A stretch of 42,368 nucleotides of DNA from a virus (IMGVR_UViG_2737471817_000007:1-42368), one strand, 5' to 3'; counted from the first letter of the stretch, positions 2,223 to 42,368 are shown. The notes: generated by a model from the sequence alone, not told the origin. Numbers and translations: made by a program.

Positions 2223-2259
2223 GCCCCTTGCACTGGTTGGCGCCAAGCAAGGGGTTTTT
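2223..2259. terminator. GC-rich hairpin with T-run at the ImmA 3' end (terminator-like, better formed on the plus strand)
   Basis: gccccttgc ... gcaagggg stem followed by ttttt. Confidence 0.35.
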
Positions 2260-2779
2260 ACATTTTGTCTAGCTGATAACGCGCTGCCACTAATGAAACT
2301 CCGCATGCCTCAGCAACATCCTCAGCCGTCATACCTTTTAAAATACTGGCATGCATAGCTGGCACTAATAACTCACCACTAAAACATTTAGCTTGCCATT
2401 CACTACTCTCAAAAGGGCGGATTTTTACCCCTGGGGCAGAACGAGCAAATGCGATGTTCCTGTGCATAAGAAGATGACCCAGTTCATGCGCGGCAGTCAT
2501 CCTATCTCGCCCTACCCCATTCAAAGCGCCTTCGTAAATGTCTTCGCGCAGAATCAATAAATGTTCCTGTGGGTATGTAAGACCATGCGTCTCTCCCATT
2601 TCTTTCATACCACCAATGTGGAACTCAAAATCCGGGATCAACTGAGGCAATGCGAACTCAATTACCTCCATTACAGGGAATTTAAGCCCAGTAATACCAA
2701 ATGCGCTCCGCAGAGATCTGACGATAGAACGTATTGATTCACGATTCTGCGGAGGTACACGATAATCTTGTCCGCTCAA
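2258..2779 (-). CDS. ImmA/IrrE-family zinc metallopeptidase (COG2856-like)
   Basis: 173 aa with HELGH zinc-binding motif; immediately downstream of an XRE HTH gene in the same operon. Confidence 0.7.
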   Translation of the reverse strand: MSGQDYRVPPQNRESIRSIVRSLRSAFGITGLKFPVMEVIEFALPQLIPDFEFHIGGMKEMGETHGLTYPQEHLLILREDIYEGALNGVGRDRMTAAHELGHLLMHRNIAFARSAPGVKIRPFESSEWQAKCFSGELLVPAMHASILKGMTAEDVAEACGVSLVAARYQLDKM

Positions 2780-2787
2780 GCCGCCTC

Positions 2788-3147
2788 CTACTGCTGTTTT
2801 CGATTCAAAATCTGTCGTAAATTACGGAAGTCTTCTTCATTTAACTCATCAAAACTACGAGCGAACGCAATTGCGACTTCACGAGCGTGGCCATTCTTAC
2901 CTGACAAGCTGATCTCTACTGACTGCTGAGAGTCACGAGCTGCACTGATAAGCTTTTCTTTTTGTTTTTCATCCGCATTAAAATAGCTAATGATGCTATC
3001 AAGCACGGGCTTAGTGACCGCCCTTTTACCAGTTTCGATCGCTGAAAGATAAGACGAGGTCATACCCATAGCCTCAGCCATGCTTTTAAGCGTAAGCCCC
3101 AAGTCTATGCGCATTTTTCTTACTGTCTTACCAAACGGCGTTAACAT
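2788..3147 (-). CDS. XRE-family helix-turn-helix transcriptional regulator
   Basis: 119 aa; LTLKSMAEAMGMTSSYLSAIETGKR is a typical XRE HTH. Confidence 0.7.
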   Translation of the reverse strand: MLTPFGKTVRKMRIDLGLTLKSMAEAMGMTSSYLSAIETGKRAVTKPVLDSIISYFNADEKQKEKLISAARDSQQSVEISLSGKNGHAREVAIAFARSFDELNEEDFRNLRQILNRKQQ

Positions 3148-3680: not shown

Positions 3681-4550
<870 letters not shown>

Positions 4551-4570: not shown

Positions 4571-4628
4571 AACCGCAGCACGATCTTCTTGCATACGACG
4601 TGCTACGGTTTCATTTATCTCCGACCGG
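4571..4628. repeat. Hairpin element copy C (core only), overlapping the 3' end of the invertase gene
   Basis: ccgcagcacg-atcttcttgcatacga-cgtgctacgg; left arm is A-type, right arm is B-type. Confidence 0.6.
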
Positions 4629-5165
4629 AAACTTCTTATACAGTGTCGATATACCAACATCATAGATGATCGCCACCTTCTGGCGAGGAACGCCTGATGC
4701 AATTAATCGTCCGGCCTGCTCCCATTGTTCTGGTGTAAGTTTGGGGCGACGTCCACCAATTCGTCCCTGTGCGCGAGCTGCTTCCAGTCCAGCTTTTGTT
4801 CGTTCAACAATCAGTTCACGCTCCATTTCAGCCAGGGCACCCATCACATGAAAGAAAAAGCGCCCCATTGGGGTACTGGTATCAATTGAATCCGTCAGAC
4901 TACGAAAGTTGATGCCTCGTTCGCGCAACTCCTCCACCAGCACGACAAGATGCCGCATACTGCGCCCCAGTCGGTCCAGTTTCCAGACCACCAGCGTGTC
5001 ACCTGCCGATAATGTCCTGAGCAGCTTTTTCAGTCCTGGTCTGTCGGACTTTGTACCGCTTATCTTGTCTTCAAAAATCAGCTTACATCCTGCACAGTTC
5101 AGCGCATTACGTTGTAGATCGGTATTCTGGTCATTTGTTGATACACGTACATAGCCAATAAGCAT
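4611..5165 (-). CDS. Serine recombinase / DNA invertase (Gin/Hin/Pin/Cin family)
   Basis: MLIGYVRVSTNDQNTDLQ N-terminus typical of resolvase/invertase catalytic domains; adjacent to oppositely oriented tail-fibre cassettes; the ORF track begins 12 codons earlier at 5201. Confidence 0.8.
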   Translation of the reverse strand: MLIGYVRVSTNDQNTDLQRNALNCAGCKLIFEDKISGTKSDRPGLKKLLRTLSAGDTLVVWKLDRLGRSMRHLVVLVEELRERGINFRSLTDSIDTSTPMGRFFFHVMGALAEMERELIVERTKAGLEAARAQGRIGGRRPKLTPEQWEQAGRLIASGVPRQKVAIIYDVGISTLYKKFPVGDK

Positions 5166-5166
5166 G

Positions 5167-5194
5167 TTAAATCCCCCTGGCAAAAGCAGGAATG
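5167..5194. other. Candidate left crossover site of the invertible tail-fibre segment
   Basis: aaATCCccctggcaaaagCAGGAAtg shares a ctggcaaa(a)g core, in inverted orientation, with 6963-6992; both copies encode the peptide LAKA. Confidence 0.4.
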
Positions 5195-5581
5195 ATGCCA
5201 TTTGCTTGTTATTTCTTCATTTTCATAAACATTGGTTTGGGAGAATTATCTCTGGCTGGCACTGCATCGGGTGTCATTGGCCTGAATGGGTATGTAACGA
5301 TCCCGTTAATTATTTCAGGTTCCCGGAGAACACTGATTATTCAGTGGGGGCAGGCGAGATTTGGTGGGTCTGGTGGTGAAGATGCCGGATATCTTAACGA
5401 TTTTCCTTTTGCCTTTCCGTCAGCATGTTATGGAATGATAGTTAGTCATGTGGGGCATACACCTTCAGGCGCAGGAATCTTGTCGGCTTCTGCAATTACA
5501 TCAAATCAGTTCCGCGGTTTTTCAAGCATAGCGACTGCTGCAAACGCTGTATTAGGTCGTTATATCGCTATAGGGGTGTAA
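5192..5581 (+). CDS. Alternative tail-fibre C-terminal (receptor-binding) segment, currently in the silent orientation
   Basis: 129-aa ORF opposite to the expressed fibre; same length as the fibre C-terminal part after the LAKA junction; contains an IIQWG motif of the kind seen in side-tail-fibre C-termini. Confidence 0.45.
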   Translation: MMPFACYFFIFINIGLGELSLAGTASGVIGLNGYVTIPLIISGSRRTLIIQWGQARFGGSGGEDAGYLNDFPFAFPSACYGMIVSHVGHTPSGAGILSASAITSNQFRGFSSIATAANAVLGRYIAIGV

Positions 5582-5582
5582 T

Positions 5583-6019
5583 ATGTTTTATAGTCCATCT
5601 TTAAACATTTTTGTGAATCCTGCACTTAAGGATGATTACATTAATGCAAATTCATGGCCAGATGATGCTCTGGCTGTCAGTGATGATGTTTATAATGAAT
5701 TTGCAATCAATACGCCTCCAGATGACAAAATTCGTGTTGCAGGAAAAAATGGATTACCCACATGGCACTAATACCTCCACCATCACATGAAGAACTTATT
5801 CAACAGGCAGAATCAGAAAGGCAATTATTGCTTAATCAGGCCAACGAATACATGAACAGTAAGCAATGGCCCGGTAAAGCCGCTATTGGTCGTCTGAAAG
5901 GTGATGAACTGGCGCAATATAATTTGTGGCTGGATTATCTGGACGCACTGGAGCTGATCGATACTTCCGGTGCGCCAGATATTGAATGGCCTACGCCTCC
6001 GGCAGTTCAGGCCAGATGA
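5583..6019 (+). CDS. Alternative tail-fibre assembly protein (Tfa'), apparently split into two frames near 5762-5771
   Basis: ORFs 5583-5771 and 5762-6019; the second ends with the Tfa signature DTSGAPDIEWP. Confidence 0.4.
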
Positions 6020-6593
6020 CATCCGGCGCTGTGCTGGTATCTGTTGCCGTCACCGCGTCAATGTAATCCAGCACAGCGTTAAGGCGGGTTGTTTCTGCCT
6101 GCGTCAGTTTACGTCCGGCCTGCAATTTCAGTTGAATCAGACTGATGGAAGCCATTGCTGCATCAATCAGTGACTGGCGCTGTGCTTCTGCCGCTTCTAC
6201 TGCGGCACAGTGTTGTGCCTCAGTGTCGGTCACCCATTTCTCACCATCCCATTTATCATATGGCGTTAACGGGGCGATAGTGGTTGTATTTTCTGGATAG
6301 TCGCCTGGTGCTGTGATTTCTTTGGCATCTCCCGTTTCGGTGTTATAGACGATTTCACCGCGATGGTCTGGCACATATTCCCATGAGTTAAAATCTGCAG
6401 AACGGCAGATTGCATAACCAGCTTTGTATGCGCCTGGAGCATCTAAACAGGAACATGCCGGAATACCGACACCCACAGCAAGATATTCAGTTGATGTGAA
6501 AATATATTCCCGTGTTTCACCATCATAGTTATAAACAGTAATATTTCCTGCCTGAGTGGCGATAAATTCGTTATTTAATACGGCGTAATCCAT
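5991..6593 (-). CDS. Tail-fibre assembly protein (Tfa / Mu U-like)
   Basis: 200 aa; C-terminal DTSTAPDVIWPELP motif; directly downstream of the fibre gene. Confidence 0.7.
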   Translation of the reverse strand: MDYAVLNNEFIATQAGNITVYNYDGETREYIFTSTEYLAVGVGIPACSCLDAPGAYKAGYAICRSADFNSWEYVPDHRGEIVYNTETGDAKEITAPGDYPENTTTIAPLTPYDKWDGEKWVTDTEAQHCAAVEAAEAQRQSLIDAAMASISLIQLKLQAGRKLTQAETTRLNAVLDYIDAVTATDTSTAPDVIWPELPEA

Positions 6594-7393
6594 TATGCAG
6601 CCCTCACGATATATGCAAATGCCAAGTTCCGTGGTCTGGTTTCTTTAATTAAAGAGGAGGCATCAGGTGAACTCACTGATTCAGCACCATTTCTTCCACC
6701 AGTGGTATAAGTAAAAACTCTTTCACTGTTAGACCAGTAATCCACACCAACTGTTTTTGCTGATGAAAAAATGGTTTCATCAGATATAACCTGTTCTATT
6801 CCATACGGGATATTAGTAACTGACCCCACTTTTGTAGGTATTCCATGATTATGAGAAATTACTGCATGCTCTTGATTCGTTAATAAAGTACGACCGCTAT
6901 CCACTCCACGCCCGTCATCCCAGCCACGAATAAACTCACCACGTAAATCAGGCAATTTATTTGTCGGATAAGCCTTTGCCAGTTCCGGGTATTCTTCAGC
7001 AGAAAAAGCGGCACCGTTGCATTTCAGCCAGCCTGTTGGCGGAGTGGCGGAAGGCCACGGAACAGGCACGCCAACGGGTAATGCTGAACCTTCTCCCAAA
7101 CCAAGGTTTTCGAGAGCCGTTTTCACCGTGCCATCCGATTTGATATCGCCAAACGGATTCTTGCGGCTTAACAGCAGCGCACGAAGCGCTGTAAGCAGCT
7201 GGTCATGCCGCCCCTTCTCCAGGCTGGCACCGGATGCCTCCACAACACTGCAAAGTTCCTCCTGCAACATGTCAAAGTAGTCATCATCCAGATCGGTGGC
7301 AGGTGTGCCGGTCTGGGGGTTACCACGGGTAAAACCGTTCTTACCCGCGCCGAACTTATCCTTCTGCGCGGTTTTCGTATCTATACGATGCAT
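6593..7393 (-). CDS. Tail fibre protein (constant N-terminal part plus currently expressed variable C-terminus)
   Basis: 266 aa with the conserved fibre motif [22 protein letters not shown]. Confidence 0.7.
6963..6992. other. Candidate right crossover site inside the tail-fibre gene
   Basis: Inverted partial copy of the 5167-5194 core at the LAKA codons. Confidence 0.35.
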
Positions 7394-28436: not shown

Positions 28437-28460
28437 CAAAAAAACCCGCTCAATGGCGGG
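28437..28460 (-). terminator. tR'-like intrinsic terminator just downstream of the Q-like gene
   Basis: cccgc-cattga-gcggg stem followed by U7 on the minus strand. Confidence 0.55.
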
Positions 28461-28512
28461 CTCTTAATGTTGTGTTGCTCAGTTCGCTTTAACGTCCCGA
28501 GCCTACCACAAT

Positions 28513-29091
28513 TTAAGCACTTTCTTGCTCACTCTGCAACTTAAATCTGTCGCTATTTGTGCCGAATGCGTCACAAACTGGAGCGTACAGGATCGATTCT
28601 GCAAGACTTAGCCAAGTGTCAATGCGTCGACGACAGGTGATCAGCGGCCAGTCAGGATGTTTAGCCTGCAGTTCATTGGCCATCTGCAACTTGCTCTTAC
28701 GAAGACGATACCGGTCAACAATCACGCTATAGAGCGATCGGTAGTCATCATTCATCAGTACTGAAGCAATGACACCGTCCACTAACAACCCTTCTTCATC
28801 TGAACAGAACGCCAGGCCGCTTTTATTTTTGCTGTTGAGAATTTCACGCAGGTACGCTTCAAGTTCAGGCTTGGTGATACCCGCTATCTTCATCCGGCGT
28901 AGCGCTTCATTGATAGCTGTCTTGGTGATTTTCCCGGATGCCAGAAGCTGGTTAAACATGTTTCCACCACTACCACCGCCGATATAAGACCAGCGGCCCC
29001 ACATGCGCAACTTGCCTTGTATCCAGATACTTTCCAGAGTACGAAGGCGAACCATTTCACCTGATTTGCCAACTTCAGAAGGATTAATCAT
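28513..29091 (-). CDS. Late-gene antiterminator Q-like protein
   Basis: 192 aa immediately upstream of a terminator and the lysis genes; no clear motif match, call rests on position. Confidence 0.45.
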   Translation of the reverse strand: MINPSEVGKSGEMVRLRTLESIWIQGKLRMWGRWSYIGGGSGGNMFNQLLASGKITKTAINEALRRMKIAGITKPELEAYLREILNSKNKSGLAFCSDEEGLLVDGVIASVLMNDDYRSLYSVIVDRYRLRKSKLQMANELQAKHPDWPLITCRRRIDTWLSLAESILYAPVCDAFGTNSDRFKLQSEQESA

Positions 29092-29105: not shown

Positions 29106-29900
29106 TTACGCCAGTACGCCTATTGCCAGCGCACGATCGATAAAACGAAATATCAGCTCCAGCTGGGAGCCATACTTCTCTTCAAATGCCACGGTATCCG
29201 CATGCAGCTCGTCGTGATGCTTTCTGCACAAAGGCAACACAAAGAGGTCATGCGCTTTTGTACCCATTCCACCCTGACCGTGACCTATCAGGTGGTGGGG
29301 ATCATCAGCAGGCTTTCCACAACATGCACACGGCTGTGTCTTAACCCAGCGCGTGTACTTTTCATTAACCCAGCGGCGACGTTTGGGGCGTAACATAAAA
29401 GACTCCGGCGACTCCGGATCCACTTTCAGCGCCAGCACCTTTTTCGCCTTATCCTGGATGATGCTGGTGGCAGGAACCGAAGGCACAAGGTCACTTTCCC
29501 GGGTGACAGACTGCACAACAGGCTTCGGTAATCTCAGTGCCTTACGGGCTGCACTTTCCGGTAAGGCATCTGCCAGATCATTACGAATCAGCCACCAGCA
29601 CAGTTCCGGCATTGTCACAACGTGACTATCATCAAAACCGAGATCCCGACGCACAACAGACAACACCCAGCGGGCACAGTTATCCGTTGCCATTGATTCC
29701 AGCCGTTCCGTGAACTGATCGCGCAGCTGGTTATCGCAGTGCCAGCACAGACGGATTGCGCCCGGAGCGTGTCGCATTGTGGTCATGTTCTCGCTGTGCC
29801 AGTCGGAATGAGGCCACTGGCAGCCTTTTTCACGAAGTAACCAGCTTTCAAGACATTCCACGCCACCAGCACGACGGATCACTGCCTCATTGCGGAACAC
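29106..29900 (-). CDS. DUF968 / NinG-like phage protein with Cys/His zinc-finger-like motif
   Basis: 264 aa; CACCGKPADDPHHL ... CRKHHDELH motif; nin-region position. Confidence 0.45.
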   Translation of the reverse strand: MFRNEAVIRRAGGVECLESWLLREKGCQWPHSDWHSENMTTMRHAPGAIRLCWHCDNQLRDQFTERLESMATDNCARWVLSVVRRDLGFDDSHVVTMPELCWWLIRNDLADALPESAARKALRLPKPVVQSVTRESDLVPSVPATSIIQDKAKKVLALKVDPESPESFMLRPKRRRWVNEKYTRWVKTQPCACCGKPADDPHHLIGHGQGGMGTKAHDLFVLPLCRKHHDELHADTVAFEEKYGSQLELIFRFIDRALAIGVLA

Positions 29901-30101
29901 GGCCCGAACGGCAGGAGCATCCGCCAGCGGTTGTGATGCCGCCGGAACAGCACCACTGGCGAAAGATGAATAACGTTCCGGCTCAGGCTCCAGCAGGACA
30001 CGCCCTGCATAAACAAGGGCATCAGCTCTGAACCTGGCCTGAACAATACGATCCCCATACGCGGGGCAATTTCAGGGGTCAGTAGTGCTCTCACGGTCAC
30101 C

Positions 30102-30930: not shown

Positions 30931-31320
30931 TCAGGCGGCTGCACCCGCCGTTTTCTCGTACTTACTGATAGTGATCTCGACCTTCCCTCCCGGGATAACC
31001 GGTCCCCACTCCACCAGCATTCTTTTCACCTGGCTGTCGTCTTCCCACACACCCGCGTGGGTCAGAACGTCAAACAGCGCCTTGTTATAGTTGTCCAGAT
31101 CGCGGATCCTGTTATCCGGAGGAAACAACACGATCTCCACTGAAGCAGGTGCCGACGTTGGTTTCGGCAGACGACGTAACTGTTCAACTATTGCTGCGCA
31201 CGCCGCGCTCTGAAATTTTCGCCCCGCCGCGCTTATCAGGCTCTTACCTGCAAATGCCCCTTTGTTGGGGTGTCGCCAATACGTGTTCACGCTGGGCGGG
31301 AAAGGCAAGATCAGCTTCAT
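30931..31320 (-). CDS. rusA: RusA-family Holliday junction resolvase
   Basis: 129 aa; size, acidic DxD region and position match phage RusA. Confidence 0.6.
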   Translation of the reverse strand: MKLILPFPPSVNTYWRHPNKGAFAGKSLISAAGRKFQSAACAAIVEQLRRLPKPTSAPASVEIVLFPPDNRIRDLDNYNKALFDVLTHAGVWEDDSQVKRMLVEWGPVIPGGKVEITISKYEKTAGAAA

Positions 31321-31643
31321 ACTTTCAGGCCCCTCTCATGTAACCAGTGGGCTGCACGCAGCCTGGCGTTTTCCTCACCGGCAAGCAGTGCGCGGATAAT
31401 CCCGACCGCCTCACTGTCGTCGTCCTTCACCGCGGTATGAAGCGTTATCCCCCGGGCCACGCCACGCTTTATCGTGATGACGCCTTTTTTCTCCAGTGCG
31501 CGAAGATGCTCCACCGCTGCATTCACCGAACGGTATCCCAGCATGGTTGCCACCTCCTGATTGGTTGGCGGGAAGCCACGTTCTTTCTGGTAAGAAATCA
31601 GCATATCCAGCACCTGCTGCTGGCATTGAGTTAACGTCGTCAT
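31317..31643 (-). CDS. LexA-like N-terminal DNA-binding domain protein (no peptidase domain)
   Basis: 108 aa; QQQVLDMLISYQKERGFPPTNQEVATMLGYRSVNAAVEHLRALEKKGVI closely parallels the LexA winged-helix domain. Confidence 0.6.
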   Translation of the reverse strand: MTTLTQCQQQVLDMLISYQKERGFPPTNQEVATMLGYRSVNAAVEHLRALEKKGVITIKRGVARGITLHTAVKDDDSEAVGIIRALLAGEENARLRAAHWLHERGLKV

Positions 31644-32326
31644 GCCGCCATCTCCCTGACCAGTTTTTCCGCCTGCTGGCGAACCTGCGCCAGAAAGGCC
31701 TCACCACATGCCTCAAGTTCATCGCGCCCGATGTAGCTGATTGCCGGTCCCTTCCAGGTCTTGTCGAAAACAGCAATAGCACCAGCGAAGAACGCTCCTG
31801 TAGGCACCTGCTTCTCATCCTTCGGGATAAACCAGGCAGGCAGTTCAAAACCAATACGCCCGCGAATAAAAGCAATATGGTCTGCATCTTCCGGCCACCA
31901 AACTTCGCTGGTGGCAGCTTTGATCAGGAAAACATAGCGCCCGCCTTTATCACGCATGGCACTGGCATGTTTCATGATGTAACGCATGCCGGTGATGTAT
32001 TGCCCCTCATGCTGACTGGCGCGGCTGTACGGGGGATTACCAAAGGCAGCACCTTTAAGCTCCGCAAGACGTTCAGACCAGTCATGCGCCAGCGCGTTGT
32101 CTTCCGCAGTGTAATAAGCGGCACATTTGGCGTTATCACCATCAGTGAACAGATCCAGAACAAACGGGCCAAACAGGGTGTTAATTCCCCAGAAAATGTT
32201 GTCCGGCGTGCGCCACTGATCGCCCACTTCCTTCAGTTCATGGGCTGGTTTGTTCCGCAGCTCCACCAGCGCCTGGCAATATTTATTACTCATTAAGCCC
32301 CCACGTAATTCCCTGACAGATACCAC
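31640..32326 (-). CDS. Phage N6-adenine DNA methyltransferase (Dam-like, orphan)
   Basis: 228 aa with FGNPPYS (motif IV, NPPY). Confidence 0.7.
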   Translation of the reverse strand: MVSVRELRGGLMSNKYCQALVELRNKPAHELKEVGDQWRTPDNIFWGINTLFGPFVLDLFTDGDNAKCAAYYTAEDNALAHDWSERLAELKGAAFGNPPYSRASQHEGQYITGMRYIMKHASAMRDKGGRYVFLIKAATSEVWWPEDADHIAFIRGRIGFELPAWFIPKDEKQVPTGAFFAGAIAVFDKTWKGPAISYIGRDELEACGEAFLAQVRQQAEKLVREMAA

Positions 32327-32859
32327 TCTTCACCCGATGCAGCGCGCTTGCTGCTTTTCTGTAAGCACTGCTCACGACGCGCCAAAAAATTGTTTCGTTC
32401 TGGCTGGGAGTGGCTTTCACGGAATGCCGCCATCCACACCGTTGCAGCACGACGGTATAGGCCCCTGGACTCCAGTTCTTCAGCCTGGCTGGTCAGGCAC
32501 AAAATCACCCGGGGGTCGTTAGTGCCGACATAGAAATTGCGCACAGGTCTGGTTTCACGAACTTGTTGTGGTTCCGGCTCCTGCGCTCTCTCAGTCAGGC
32601 GCGGGAAATGTCTGCGTGTATCCCCTTCACAACGGTGAGCCACACGCCCACTCTGACGTAACTTGCTTGCTGACTGCAGAACGCGCTGCCGTGAGTAACC
32701 AGCAAAAGCATCTGCAATGTCTCCGGAAGTACACCCCGGATGGGCTTCAATGAATTTCTGAACGTCATTCAAAAGACTCATGATCACCCCCTGAATCCTG
32801 CCGGGATCTGGCTGTAGTCCACATTGTCGTAACTGGCTTTGAAGTACGGGTCTTCGCAT
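32293..32859 (-). CDS. Hypothetical protein (likely true start about 32780, coupled to the O-like gene stop)
   Basis: 188-aa ORF; downstream of and overlapping the replication gene. Confidence 0.4.
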   Translation of the reverse strand: MRRPVLQSQLRQCGLQPDPGRIQGVIMSLLNDVQKFIEAHPGCTSGDIADAFAGYSRQRVLQSASKLRQSGRVAHRCEGDTRRHFPRLTERAQEPEPQQVRETRPVRNFYVGTNDPRVILCLTSQAEELESRGLYRRAATVWMAAFRESHSQPERNNFLARREQCLQKSSKRAASGEEWYLSGNYVGA

Positions 32860-34955: not shown

Positions 34956-35630
34956 ATGAAAACAATCCATGACATCCGGCGGTCTAACGCCAGAAAACTG
35001 AGAGATGGTGTTGGCGGGAATTCTTCCTTTGCCACTATGATTGATCGCGAGCCAACCCAGACCAGCAGGTTTATGGGAGATGGTGCTACTAAAAATATCG
35101 GTGACAGCATGGCACGACACATCGAAAAATGTTTCGACCTGCCTGTTGGATGGCTCGATCAAGAACACCAGACAACGAACATCACAAAAAAACCTGATGT
35201 TTCAATCACTAATAAACAAATCACATTAGTCCCTGTCATATCATGGGTACAGGCCGGAGCATGGAAAGAAGTTGGATATTCTGAGGTTGATTTGAGCACA
35301 GCAGAAACGTATCCCTGCCCTGTACCCTGTGGGGAAATGACTTATATCTTGCGGGTGATAGGTGATTCAATGATTGATGAGTACCGCCCGGGAGACATGA
35401 TTTTTGTCGATCCTGAAGTACCAGCCTGCCACGGTGACGACGTTATTGCATTGATGCACGATACAGGTGAAACCACCTTCAAAAGGTTGATAGAAGATGG
35501 GACACAGCGTTATCTCAAAGCGTTAAACCCAAACTGGCCTGAGCCTTACATTAAGATCAACGGTAATTGCTCTATAATTGGAACTGTGATTTTCTCAGGA
35601 AAACCAAGAAGATACAAAATCAAAGCCTAA
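34956..35630 (+). CDS. cI: CI-type prophage repressor (HTH + S24 LexA-like peptidase domain)
   Basis: 224 aa; C-terminal GDSM ... FKRL Ser/Lys dyad region typical of S24 autoproteolytic repressors. Confidence 0.75.
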   Translation: MKTIHDIRRSNARKLRDGVGGNSSFATMIDREPTQTSRFMGDGATKNIGDSMARHIEKCFDLPVGWLDQEHQTTNITKKPDVSITNKQITLVPVISWVQAGAWKEVGYSEVDLSTAETYPCPVPCGEMTYILRVIGDSMIDEYRPGDMIFVDPEVPACHGDDVIALMHDTGETTFKRLIEDGTQRYLKALNPNWPEPYIKINGNCSIIGTVIFSGKPRRYKIKA

Positions 35631-39520: not shown

Positions 39521-39870
39521 TGGAGCCATACAGCCTCACACTCGATGAGGCCTGTCATTTTCTCAAGATATCCAGACCGACTGCCATTAACTGGATACGC
39601 ACAGGGCGTCTTCAGGCAACACGCAAAGATCCCACTAAGAATAAATCTCCTTACCTCACAACACGACAAGCCTGCATTGCGGCTCTTCAGTCTCCGCTGC
39701 ATACTGTCCAGGTGAGCGCGGGTGATGGCATAACAGAGGAAAGAAAATGTCACTCTTCCGCAGAGGTGAAATATGGTACGCCAGTTTCACATTGCCGAAC
39801 GGTAAAAGATTTAAACAGTCTCTTGGAACAAAGGACAAAAGGCAGGCGACAGAACTCCATGACAAGCTAA
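39520..39870 (+). CDS. xis: Excisionase (AlpA/MerR-like HTH)
   Basis: [34 protein letters not shown] immediately upstream of and overlapping int. Confidence 0.55.
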
Positions 39871-40910
39871 AGGCTGAAGCATGGCGGGTCAGCAAACTTG
39901 GTGAAATACCTGATATAACGTTCGAGGAAGCGTGTGTCAGGTGGCTTGAAGAGAAAGCACATAAAAAATCACTGGACGATGACAAAAGCCGGATCGGATT
40001 CTGGCTTCAACATTTCGCAGGAATGCAACTAAGAGACATTACTGAATCAAAAATTTATTCAGCAATGCAGAAAATGACGAACCGGCGTCATGAGGAAAAC
40101 TGGAAACTCAGGGCAGAAGCATGCAGAAAAAAAGGGAAACCTGTTCCAGAATACACGCCAAAACCAGCGTCCGTTGCAACGAAGGCTACGCATCTTTCAT
40201 TTATAAAGGCCCTACTAAGAGCCGCAGAGCGTGAATGGAAAATGCTGGATAAGGCACCAATTATTAAAGTGCCTCAACCAAAGAATAAACGGATCCGCTG
40301 GCTGGAGCCCCATGAAGCACAAAGGCTGATTGATGAATGTCCGGAGCCATTAAAGTCTGTTGTTGAATTTGCACTGGCAACAGGCTTAAGACGCTCGAAC
40401 ATCATCAACCTTGAATGGCAACAAATAGATATGCAGCGCCGGGTGGCATGGATAAACCCGGAAGAGAGTAAATCAAACCGCGCAATTGGCGTTGCGCTGA
40501 ATGATACTGCATGTCGCGTTTTGAAAAAACAAATCGGGAATCATCACCGTTGGGTATTTGTGTACAAGGAAAGCTGTACCAAACCAGACGGAACGAAAGC
40601 GCCAACAGTAAGGAAGATGCGGTATGACGCAAACACAGCCTGGAAAGCGGCGCTGAGACGGGCTGGTATTGATGATTTCAGATTTCACGACTTGAGACAC
40701 ACCTGGGCAAGTTGGCTGGTTCAAGCCGGAGTCCCGTTGTCAGTGTTACAGGAAATGGGAGGCTGGGAGTCTATCGAAATGGTTCGTCGATATGCTCACC
40801 TTGCACCTAATCACCTTACCGAACACGCACGGCAAATAGACTCGATCCTGAACCCATCGGTCCCAAATTCGTCCCAGTCAAAAAATAAGGAAGGTACTAA
40901 TGATGTGTAA
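39747..40910 (+). CDS. int: Tyrosine integrase
   Basis: 387 aa; C-terminal HDLRHT ... VRRYAHL catalytic region; ends 14 bp from the tRNA. Confidence 0.85.
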
Positions 40911-40969
40911 CTTATTGATTTAAATGGTGCCGATAATAGGAGTCGAACCTACGACCTTCGCATTACGAA
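40903..40969. repeat. attR: phage/tRNA junction copy of the attachment repeat
   Basis: Matches 104-170; lies inside the tRNA 3' half. Confidence 0.75.
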
Positions 40970-41000
40970 TGCGCTGCTCTACCAACTGAGCTATATCGGC
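40925..41000 (-). tRNA. thrW: tRNA-Thr (anticodon CGU)
   Basis: Reverse complement reads GCCGATATAGCTCAGTTGGTAGAGCAGCGCATTCGTAATGCGAAGGTCGTAGGTTCGACTCCTATTATCGGCACCA: cloverleaf with CGT anticodon and CCA end. Confidence 0.85.
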
Positions 41001-41114: not shown

Positions 41115-42368
41115 TTACGCACGAATGGTGTAATCACCAATGCCGATCCACTTGTAAGTGGTCAGTGCTTCCAGCCCCATTGGGCCACGCGCGTGGAGTT
41201 TTTGTGTGCTTACCGCCACTTCCGCACCCAGACCAAACTGGCCGCCGTCGGTAAAACGCGTAGAGGCGTTAACGTAAACAGCGGACGAATCCACTTCGTT
41301 AACAAAACGCTGGGCGTTGCGCATATCGCGGGTCAAGATCGCATCGGAGTGTTGTGTGCCGTGTTCACGAATATGGGCGATGGCATCGTCAAGATCGCTG
41401 ACGATTTTGACGTTCAAATCTAATGACAGAAACTCATCGTCATACTCTTCGGCTTTAACAGCAACCACCTTCGCAGGGCCTGTCTGCAACTGCGCCAGTG
41501 CAGCTGCATCTGCGTGTAATGTCACGCCGCTTTCCGCCATTTGTTTGCTTAATGCGGGCAGGAAGCTATCGGCGATGTTTTTATTCACCAGCAACGTTTC
41601 AACCGTATTACATGTGCTCGGACGCTGAGTTTTCGCGTTGACGATCACTTTTAATGCTTCAGCGATCTCTACACTTTCATCAACGTAAATATGGCATACG
41701 CCTATACCACCTGTGATCACCGGGATTGTCGACTGTTCACGGCACAGTTTATGCAAACCAGCGCCACCACGCGGGATCAGCATGTCGATGTATTTATCCA
41801 TACGCAGCATTTCACTGACCAGCGCACGGTCAGGATTATCAATCGCCTGCACGGCACCCGCCGGTAAGCCGCAGGATTTCAGGGCGTCCTGAATCACCGC
41901 CACCGTTGCAGCGTTAGTGCGACACGTTTCTTTGCCACCGCGCAGGATCACCGCATTACCGGTTTTCAGGCACAGCGAAGCGACATCAACCGTCACGTTC
42001 GGGCGCGCTTCATAAATCACGCCAATAACCCCCAGCGGTACGCGACGACGCTCAAGACGCAGGCCGCTGTCCAGTACGCTGCCATCGATTACCTGCCCCA
42101 CCGGATCGGCGAGGTTACACACCTGGCGCACATCATCGGCAATGCCTTTCAGCCGTGCGGGCGTCAGTGCCAGACGGTCAAGCATCGCTTCGCCAAGGCC
42201 ATTGGCACGCGCGTCAGCAACATCCTGGGCGTTAGCGTTGAGGATGATTTCGCTTTGTGCTTCCAGTTCATCGGCGATTTTTTCCAGCACGCGATTTTTT
42301 TCGCGGCTGGAGAGTTGCGCTAATTTATACGAGGCTTGCTTCGCGGCAATGCCCATTTGTTCCAGCAT
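41115..42368 (-). CDS. proA: Gamma-glutamyl phosphate reductase
   Basis: 417-aa protein recognisable as enterobacterial ProA (aldehyde dehydrogenase fold); host gene flanking the tRNA. Confidence 0.9.

Follow-up and report, generated by a model that had tools for sequence, protein, structure and literature searches.

A peptidase-free protein with a LexA-type DNA-binding domain encoded in the early lytic operon of an SfV-like prophage

The window, by which we mean the whole 42,368-nt stretch of DNA that was analyzed, is an SfV-like prophage integrated at thrW. Its right end is marked by a tRNA-Thr gene with anticodon cgt (40925-41000, minus strand), which lies between the phage integrase gene (39747-40910, plus strand) and a proA-like gene of the aldehyde-dehydrogenase family (41115-42368, minus strand). 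This tRNA-Thr/proA-like junction is the thrW-proA attachment site of SfV-type phages. The immunity region encodes a cI-like repressor of 224 amino acids with a Peptidase_S24 domain (34956-35630, plus strand; E = 1.5e-26). From there, the genes on the minus strand encode, in order, a CP76-type cII-like protein, an O-like replication initiator, a PerC/YfdN-like protein, a phage N-6-adenine methyltransferase (Dam, 31640-32326), the LexA-like protein that is the subject of this analysis (31317-31643, 108 amino acids with an ATG start), the RusA Holliday-junction resolvase (30931-31320), a KilA-N protein, a DUF968/HNH protein and a Q-like antiterminator (DUF1133/Phage_antitermQ, 28513-29091). The early-right operon ends with the Q-like gene and a strong intrinsic terminator on the same strand (28465-28440; 10-bp stem, 5 GC pairs and a T-run), 48 nt further downstream, which together span 28440-29091. 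This is the layout expected for a Q-antiterminated late transcript (tR'-like). Around the LexA-like gene, the DNA shares 97% identity with SfV, mEp460, phage 1720a-02 and Stx2a/Stx2c-converting phages.

Other genes of the prophage deserve a brief description. Flanked by the O-like gene and dam, the PerC/YfdN-like gene (32293-32859, minus strand) encodes a PerC domain (residues 125-175, E = 1.5e-8) and, in the N-terminal part, gives a weak MarR/BilQ-like match. Its identity between related prophages is only 24-44%, a divergence that far exceeds that of its neighbors and recalls that of the LexA-like gene. PerC homologs (Pch) of EHEC prophages activate LEE. The DUF968/HNH gene (29106-30100, minus strand) is apparently frameshifted: a 73-aa ORF (29879-30100) matches the N-terminus of intact homologs of 329-330 amino acids (for example, L232 1453-2442 and L236 5868-6860), and a 264-aa ORF (29106-29900) corresponds to the remainder. 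Either the gene is a pseudogene or the sequence contains an error. The cargo at the far end of the prophage includes an XRE-type HTH gene (2788-3147, minus strand) followed by a gene for a Peptidase_M78/IrrE (ImmA-like) metalloprotease (2258-2779, minus strand), a pair that resembles ImmR/ImmA-type modules. Close to it, a gene with a LEM-3-like GIY-YIG nuclease domain (3726-4550, plus strand) lies beside a Hin/Gin-type serine invertase gene (4611-5201, minus strand). Since both adjoin a tail-fiber assembly gene (5991-6593) and a tail-collar gene (6593-7393), their presence suggests an invertible tail-fiber segment.

The LexA-like gene is tightly packed between its two neighbors. Its start codon overlaps the TGA stop codon of dam in the sequence ATGA (31640-31643), its stop codon overlaps the ATG of rusA in a second ATGA (31317-31320), and a Shine-Dalgarno-like GGGAG is found within dam, 7 nt upstream of the ATG. 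On the coding strand, neither promoter nor terminator motifs interrupt the stretch from dam through the LexA-like gene to rusA, and the LexA-like gene thus belongs to the delayed-early lytic genes of the nin region. The association with rusA is also seen elsewhere: in two other allele groups, the LexA-like gene is directly upstream of rusA in 85 out of 91 loci, and dam precedes it in just two of the 91.

An earlier note on this DNA had proposed that the protein modulates prophage induction. For its own prophage, such a role is unlikely, because the gene is a delayed-early gene beyond the replication genes and the prophage has an S24 repressor of its own. The cI-like protein is the RecA*/SOS-sensitive switch of this prophage and is separate from the LexA-like gene. 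We also rejected the LexA-like gene as an SOS-cleavable immunity repressor, since it lies approximately 3.3 kb downstream in the early-right operon and the gene at 34956-35630 fills that role.

The 108-aa protein is identical to the RefSeq entry WP_000210154.1, 'LexA family transcriptional regulator'. Residues 1-65 match the Pfam profile PF01726 (LexA_DNA_bind) over its entire length (1-65 out of 65; E = 2.9e-19, 69 bits with a cutoff of 23.7). The same Pfam search finds no Peptidase_S24 domain (PF00717) in the protein, and the next ORF downstream is rusA. Consistently, the NCBIfam lexA equivalog profile TIGR00498 is matched only at positions 1-91 out of 203, with 70.5 bits that remain under the cutoff of 110.95. 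When compared to the PDB sequences with phmmer, the protein retrieves E. coli LexA (1lea, 3jso and 1jhf) at E of about 1e-15, with residues 2-70 aligned without gaps. The ungapped comparison of residues 1-68 with the N-terminal domain of E. coli LexA gives 35 identical residues (51%). The catalytic Ser/Lys dyad and the RecA* docking surface are both missing. The proposal that the gene encodes the LexA N-terminal winged helix without the S24 domain is therefore borne out by the Pfam and PDB sequence matches, as well as by the structural model described below. So is its independence of RecA: without the autoproteolytic domain, the bound protein cannot be released from its target by RecA*-stimulated self-cleavage.

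This gene is ordinary, widespread and previously annotated. The protein belongs to PHROG 362 over its full length (residues 1-108 match positions 1-106 out of 106 of the phrog_362 profile; E = 1.6e-59), a family labeled 'transcriptional repressor'. The gene is annotated as 'unknown' in SfV (orf42) and as 'repressor, lexA family' in Stx2a phages. A survey of the Stx-phage pangenome lists pham 237 as 'LexA family transcriptional regulator, pfam01726', with no assigned role (PMC8136144). Many stand-alone LexA-domain proteins of 65-150 amino acids are also present among predicted viral structures (BFVD). At 95% identity or more, the 327-bp gene is detectable in 2,233 of 5,426 complete E. coli genomes (41%), with up to four copies per genome. 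A search of the full-text literature returned no functional study of this enterobacterial family. We also discarded a role as a component of anti-phage defense, as the only match among the PADLOC defense models is a marginal one to a CARF-associated HTH region (E = 3.6e-4). What distinguishes the protein is its conserved helical tail, the close linkage of its gene to rusA within the nin region and an immunity-like diversity of the recognition helix.

We asked whether the gene is intact and under selection. Thousands of database sequences are homologs of 104-111 amino acids with PF01726 as their sole Pfam domain. A set of 80 related viral contigs yields 53 distinct DNA alleles, all 324 nt long, for which dN/dS is 0.05, and a second allele group shows a value of 0.20. 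Given the ATGA overlaps on both sides, the narrow length range of the homologs and the dN/dS of 0.05, the missing peptidase domain is not an artifact of truncation.

We then modeled the structure of the protein. From the single sequence, AlphaFold2 gave a poor model (pLDDT 58.8), which was set aside for one based on an alignment of 34 family members (pLDDT 83.9). The latter has three helices and a wing of two strands, after which come two more helices. The first part is a winged helix-turn-helix formed by residues 1-68 (31440-31643, minus strand), with helices at 6-22, 28-35 and 40-52 and the beta wing at 56-58/66-68. Foldseek superposes this part on LexA as crystallized with its operator (3jso) with an rmsd of 0.9-1.0 A over 67-68 residues and 50-51% identity; 1jhh and 1jhf are also among the structure matches.

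The second part is a family-specific two-helix module of the C-terminus (residues 73-104; 31332-31427, minus strand; helices 73-88 and 93-103), which occupies the place of the LexA linker, cleavage site and S24 domain. Neither the Pfam nor the PDB-sequence searches detect any similarity between this tail and the C-terminal domain of LexA. In the 34-member family alignment, A97 and L101 never vary and A79 and A93 hardly do, and the tail is conserved across the alleles of E. coli, Salmonella, Citrobacter, Cronobacter, Klebsiella, Enterobacter, Atlantibacter and Kosakonia. This conservation suggests that the module may act as a dimerization element that stands in for the C-terminal domain of LexA. 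The hydrophobic moments of the tail helices are only moderate (0.18-0.35), so it is the conservation that supports this interpretation.

The recognition helix spans residues 39-50 (31494-31529, minus strand). Judging from its sequence, SVNAAVEHLRAL, it is clearly of the gamma-proteobacterial LexA type, the LexA counterpart being SPNAAEEHLKAL. The residues of LexA helix 3 that contact DNA are reported to be Ser39, Asn41, Ala42, Glu44 and Glu45 (PMC3091678). Of the five contacts named there, the LexA-like protein keeps S39, N41, A42 and E45, while E44 is replaced by valine. The alignment to LexA that had been suggested as a check on the DNA-contact residues is thus favorable at four positions and unfavorable at one. 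Overall, S39, N41, K53, R64, G65 and I66 do not vary in the family alignment, and they are located in helix 3 and in the wing, which fits selection for DNA binding. Position 7, which is arginine in LexA and in 31 of the 34 family members, is cysteine in the protein encoded at 31317-31643.

The rest of helix 3 shows a different picture. Positions 40, 44 and 45 are its most variable ones, with an entropy of 2.1-2.4 bits compared to 0-1 bits for their neighbors, and position 44 is acidic in no member of the alignment. At least 18 variants of the recognition helix occur among the tail-bearing family members. Moreover, the LexA-like proteins of related prophages are only 42-52% identical to each other, whereas the products of the flanking genes of the same prophages are far more similar (RusA 64-83%, Dam 77-81%, DUF968 mostly 64-74% and Q up to 93%). 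As judged from these comparisons, the family is composed of old alleles, each of them constrained, that differ most at the positions reading the DNA. Such a pattern is expected of regulators with diverging targets and not of mimics of a single host operator. To our knowledge, host SOS boxes are identical throughout Enterobacteriaceae, so divergent targets fit the variability of positions 40, 44 and 45 better than a common SOS-box target.

The LexA-type DNA-binding domain also combines with alternative partner domains, as indicated by the prophage group L084-L091. Here, a 158-aa gene (6001-6477, plus strand) occupies the same position just upstream of rusA, and its product contains a LexA DNA-binding domain, with 60-62% identity to the protein encoded at 31317-31643, fused to another C-terminal domain of approximately 90 amino acids that has no match in Pfam. 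Separately, several database proteins of 140-350 amino acids (P0133, P0134, P0148, P0151, P0152 and others) have two matched stretches, corresponding to tandem LexA-type DNA-binding domains.

To look for the DNA target, we scanned the window for SOS boxes and for other palindromes. No perfect CTGT-N8-ACAG box is present in the 42 kb, and the 20 matches with one mismatch are not in significant excess over the 13.8 expected. A position weight matrix, which we built from approximately 20 E. coli boxes, detects nothing above chance in the prophage: the best score is 11.4, compared to a mean of 11.5 in shuffled sequences and to 12.4 for the lowest training box. Recurrent palindromes with half-sites of 6 or 7 nt are also absent from the window.

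Two candidate sites emerged from these scans and were rejected. The first is the inverted arrangement of the SOS-type half-sites, ACAG-N13-CTGT and ACAG-N14-CTGT, which occur five and six times, respectively, compared to approximately 0.7 and 0.5 expected (together 11 and approximately 1.25). Sites of this kind lie at 7171, 9558, 14756, 17786, 19535, 24944, 25173, 27307, 33928, 34207 and 37719. All 11 lie in unrelated coding DNA with no common flank, and their excess may be an effect of codon usage. The second is the palindrome CCAGCA-N5-TGCTGG at the 5' end of the gene, which results from the conserved Q-Q-x-V-L codons, CAG being the reverse complement of CTG.

We further compared the surroundings of the gene between related prophages. 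Across six allele groups and approximately 240 loci, no palindrome between cI and Q co-varies with the allele at syntenic positions, in a search that relied on exact half-sites of 6 nt or longer, up to approximately 6 kb away on each side, and thus misses degenerate or distant sites. The alleles of the LexA-like gene do not correlate with cI immunity type or with Q type either.

Altogether, we consider it likely, with a probability of roughly 0.8, that the gene encodes a regulator of the lytic program that binds DNA sequence-specifically and is insensitive to RecA. With no promoter of its own and with its translation linked to that of dam and rusA in the delayed-early region, the protein would be made only once cI repression is lifted, that is, upon induction or infection. 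According to this model, the conserved tail module would hold two copies of a non-cleavable winged-helix protein together, and the resulting dimer could occupy CTGT-type palindromes through its LexA-like recognition helix (S39, N41, A42 and E45). As for the targets, we tentatively propose that those of this particular allele are SOS-type operators, namely those of the host and of co-resident SOS-controlled elements. Binding of this allele to SOS boxes is plausible because four of the five contact residues are kept and the predicted fold matches DNA-bound LexA. With neither an S24 domain nor a RecA*-docking surface, the LexA-like protein would stay on these operators while LexA gets cleaved, and SOS-controlled genes would be dampened or re-silenced during lytic growth. 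Several observations argue against this choice of target, in particular the valine at position 44 and the cysteine at position 7 of this allele, the at least 18 variants of the recognition helix and the fact that the base-facing positions 40, 44 and 45 are the most variable.

In a bolder version of the same proposal, which we regard as rather doubtful, the protein would be an anti-SOS factor of the prophage, an uncleavable LexA mimic that is produced from the onset of lytic growth, re-occupies SOS-type operators as host LexA is destroyed and silences competing SOS-controlled elements. The competitors could be LexA-controlled antirepressors encoded by other prophages, colicin operons, and defenses or toxins triggered by SOS. 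Host recombination and repair genes might be silenced as well, which would favor the adjacent phage RusA. The alleles of the recognition helix would then mark different sets of operators and provide a second, immunity-like layer of specificity in the competition between prophages.

The strongest alternative to SOS-type operators is that the LexA-derived domain has acquired a new target site in the phage itself or in related prophages, where it would time lytic development by repressing or activating a promoter, with the allelic recognition helices defining specificity groups. There is a precedent in gp6 of phage GIL01, the only characterized truncated phage LexA homolog, which binds the palindrome GaCACAn nTGTGaC, different from the SOS box, and activates the late phage promoter P3 (PMC6182141). 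A phage-specific target fits the family-wide variation at the reading positions better than SOS operators do: the hypervariable positions 40, 44 and 45, the low identity between allele groups that are each under purifying selection next to much better conserved flanks, and the fusion of the same-position domain to another C-terminal domain in L084-L091 are all in line with it. Against it, the window contains no recurrent palindrome, no syntenic palindrome follows the allele between cI and Q in the six groups, and the alleles are independent of cI immunity type and Q type. In addition, late transcription is already served by a Q-like antiterminator with a downstream terminator. We regard a phage-specific operator as almost as likely as SOS-type operators, which we slightly prefer for this allele.

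Alternatively, the protein could interfere with host LexA directly, by forming mixed complexes with it, either in solution or, by way of contacts of the DNA-binding domains, on the operator, and so altering SOS repression. The two N-terminal domains of operator-bound LexA share an extensive interface (PMC3159453), and G54, located near this interface, is conserved in the LexA-like protein. The determinants of LexA dimerization, though, reside in the C-terminal domain (PMC3159453), which is missing here, and the tail that replaces it has no similarity to that domain. LexA is also a stable dimer in vivo (PMC3159453), so that one LexA dimer would fill both half-sites. Finally, such poisoning does not require the strong conservation of DNA-facing residues that we observe. 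We consider this mechanism very unlikely, and the earlier suggestion that the protein heterodimerizes with LexA finds no support, since the dimerizing C-terminal domain (PMC3159453) is replaced by an unrelated two-helix module.

The similarity to LexA extends slightly beyond the winged helix and raises the question of whether the protein might be a pseudo-substrate or decoy of S24 peptidases, either cleaved in trans or competing for the active sites of LexA, cI or UmuD. Both HMMER and BLAST align residues 79-90 (AVGIIRALLAGE) with the LexA cleavage region LPLVGRVAA-GE. The LexA alignment reaches residue 90 and places A88-G89-E90 opposite A84-G85-E86 of LexA, and the TIGR00498 match continues through profile position 91. 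In the family, A88 and G89 are the most frequent residues at their positions, each with just 18 of the 34 members, and AlphaFold2 predicts the segment as an alpha-helix (pLDDT 86-88). The cleavage region of LexA is a strand-loop. Owing to this poor conservation and to the predicted helix, the resemblance of LLA-GE to the VAA-GE cleavage site is probably vestigial. No RecA-docking domain is present, and a decoy function appears even more improbable than a mixed complex with LexA. The last explanation, a non-functional remnant of a captured lexA gene, has only the shorter length of the protein in its favor and is refuted by the dN/dS of 0.05 over 53 alleles of equal length, the presence in 41% of complete E. 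coli genomes, the conservation of the C-terminal module across genera and the tight coupling to both neighbors.

These alternatives differ in their consequences. In E. coli, the SOS response governs the induction of prophages, the release of Shiga toxin, mutagenesis and persistence. If the LexA-like protein binds SOS operators, SOS output, induction of co-resident prophages and toxin production would be altered in polylysogens, and the carriers at stake comprise approximately 40% of E. coli genomes, including Stx2a/Stx2c-converting phages. It would also offer a simple case in which a phage rewires a stress regulon of its host. If the protein binds an operator of its own instead, it would represent a second, so far unstudied regulatory specificity in the nin regions of SfV-like and lambdoid phages. 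The question is now a narrow one, as it concerns one small protein that touches both SOS control and the biology of Stx phages.

We finally compared the LexA-like protein to known systems. With E. coli LexA (1lea, 1jhf and 3jso) it shares the winged-helix fold of residues 1-68 (rmsd of approximately 1 A, 51% identity), the recognition-helix type S-x-N-A-A-x-E-H-L and the wing residues R64-G65-I66. Unlike LexA, it has no S24/dimerization domain, carries V44 instead of E44 and ends in a helical tail of 40 residues; its gene is part of a lytic operon of the phage, with no autoregulation through an SOS box. Nothing sets it apart from PHROG 362 and the other stand-alone PF01726 proteins of phages. 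PHROG 362, pham 237 (PMC8136144) and the BFVD entries come with no experimentally determined target, so that assigning the protein to them names it and does not explain it.

The closest characterized analog is gp6 of GIL01, a Bam35-type tectivirus. This 66-aa truncated LexA homolog activates P3 from a palindrome that overlaps the -35 element of the promoter (PMC6182141). Both proteins are phage-encoded LexA-type DNA-binding domains without a peptidase, and gp6 is likewise produced from an early lytic operon of an SOS-inducible temperate phage. We rejected homology between the two, because BLASTP returns no alignment of the LexA-like protein with GIL01 ORF6 (gp6) at E up to 100. In contrast to the LexA-like protein, gp6 has no C-terminal module and acts in a Gram-positive host with another type of LexA box. 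GIL01 has no cI and relies on host LexA, whereas the SfV-like prophage has an S24 repressor and a Q antiterminator, and the palindrome search with exact half-sites found no site overlapping a -35 element in this prophage.

The functional analogy that best illustrates our preferred model, in which the protein stays on SOS-type operators during lytic growth, is provided by the uncleavable LexA mutants of the Ind- class (for example, S119A or G85D). In these mutants, an operator binder that RecA* cannot remove makes the SOS regulon non-inducible, and the LexA-like protein would likewise be a LexA-type operator binder that RecA* cannot displace. The difference lies in the origin of this property: the Ind- proteins are full-length products of point mutations in the host gene, whereas the insensitivity of the LexA-like protein comes from its domain architecture.
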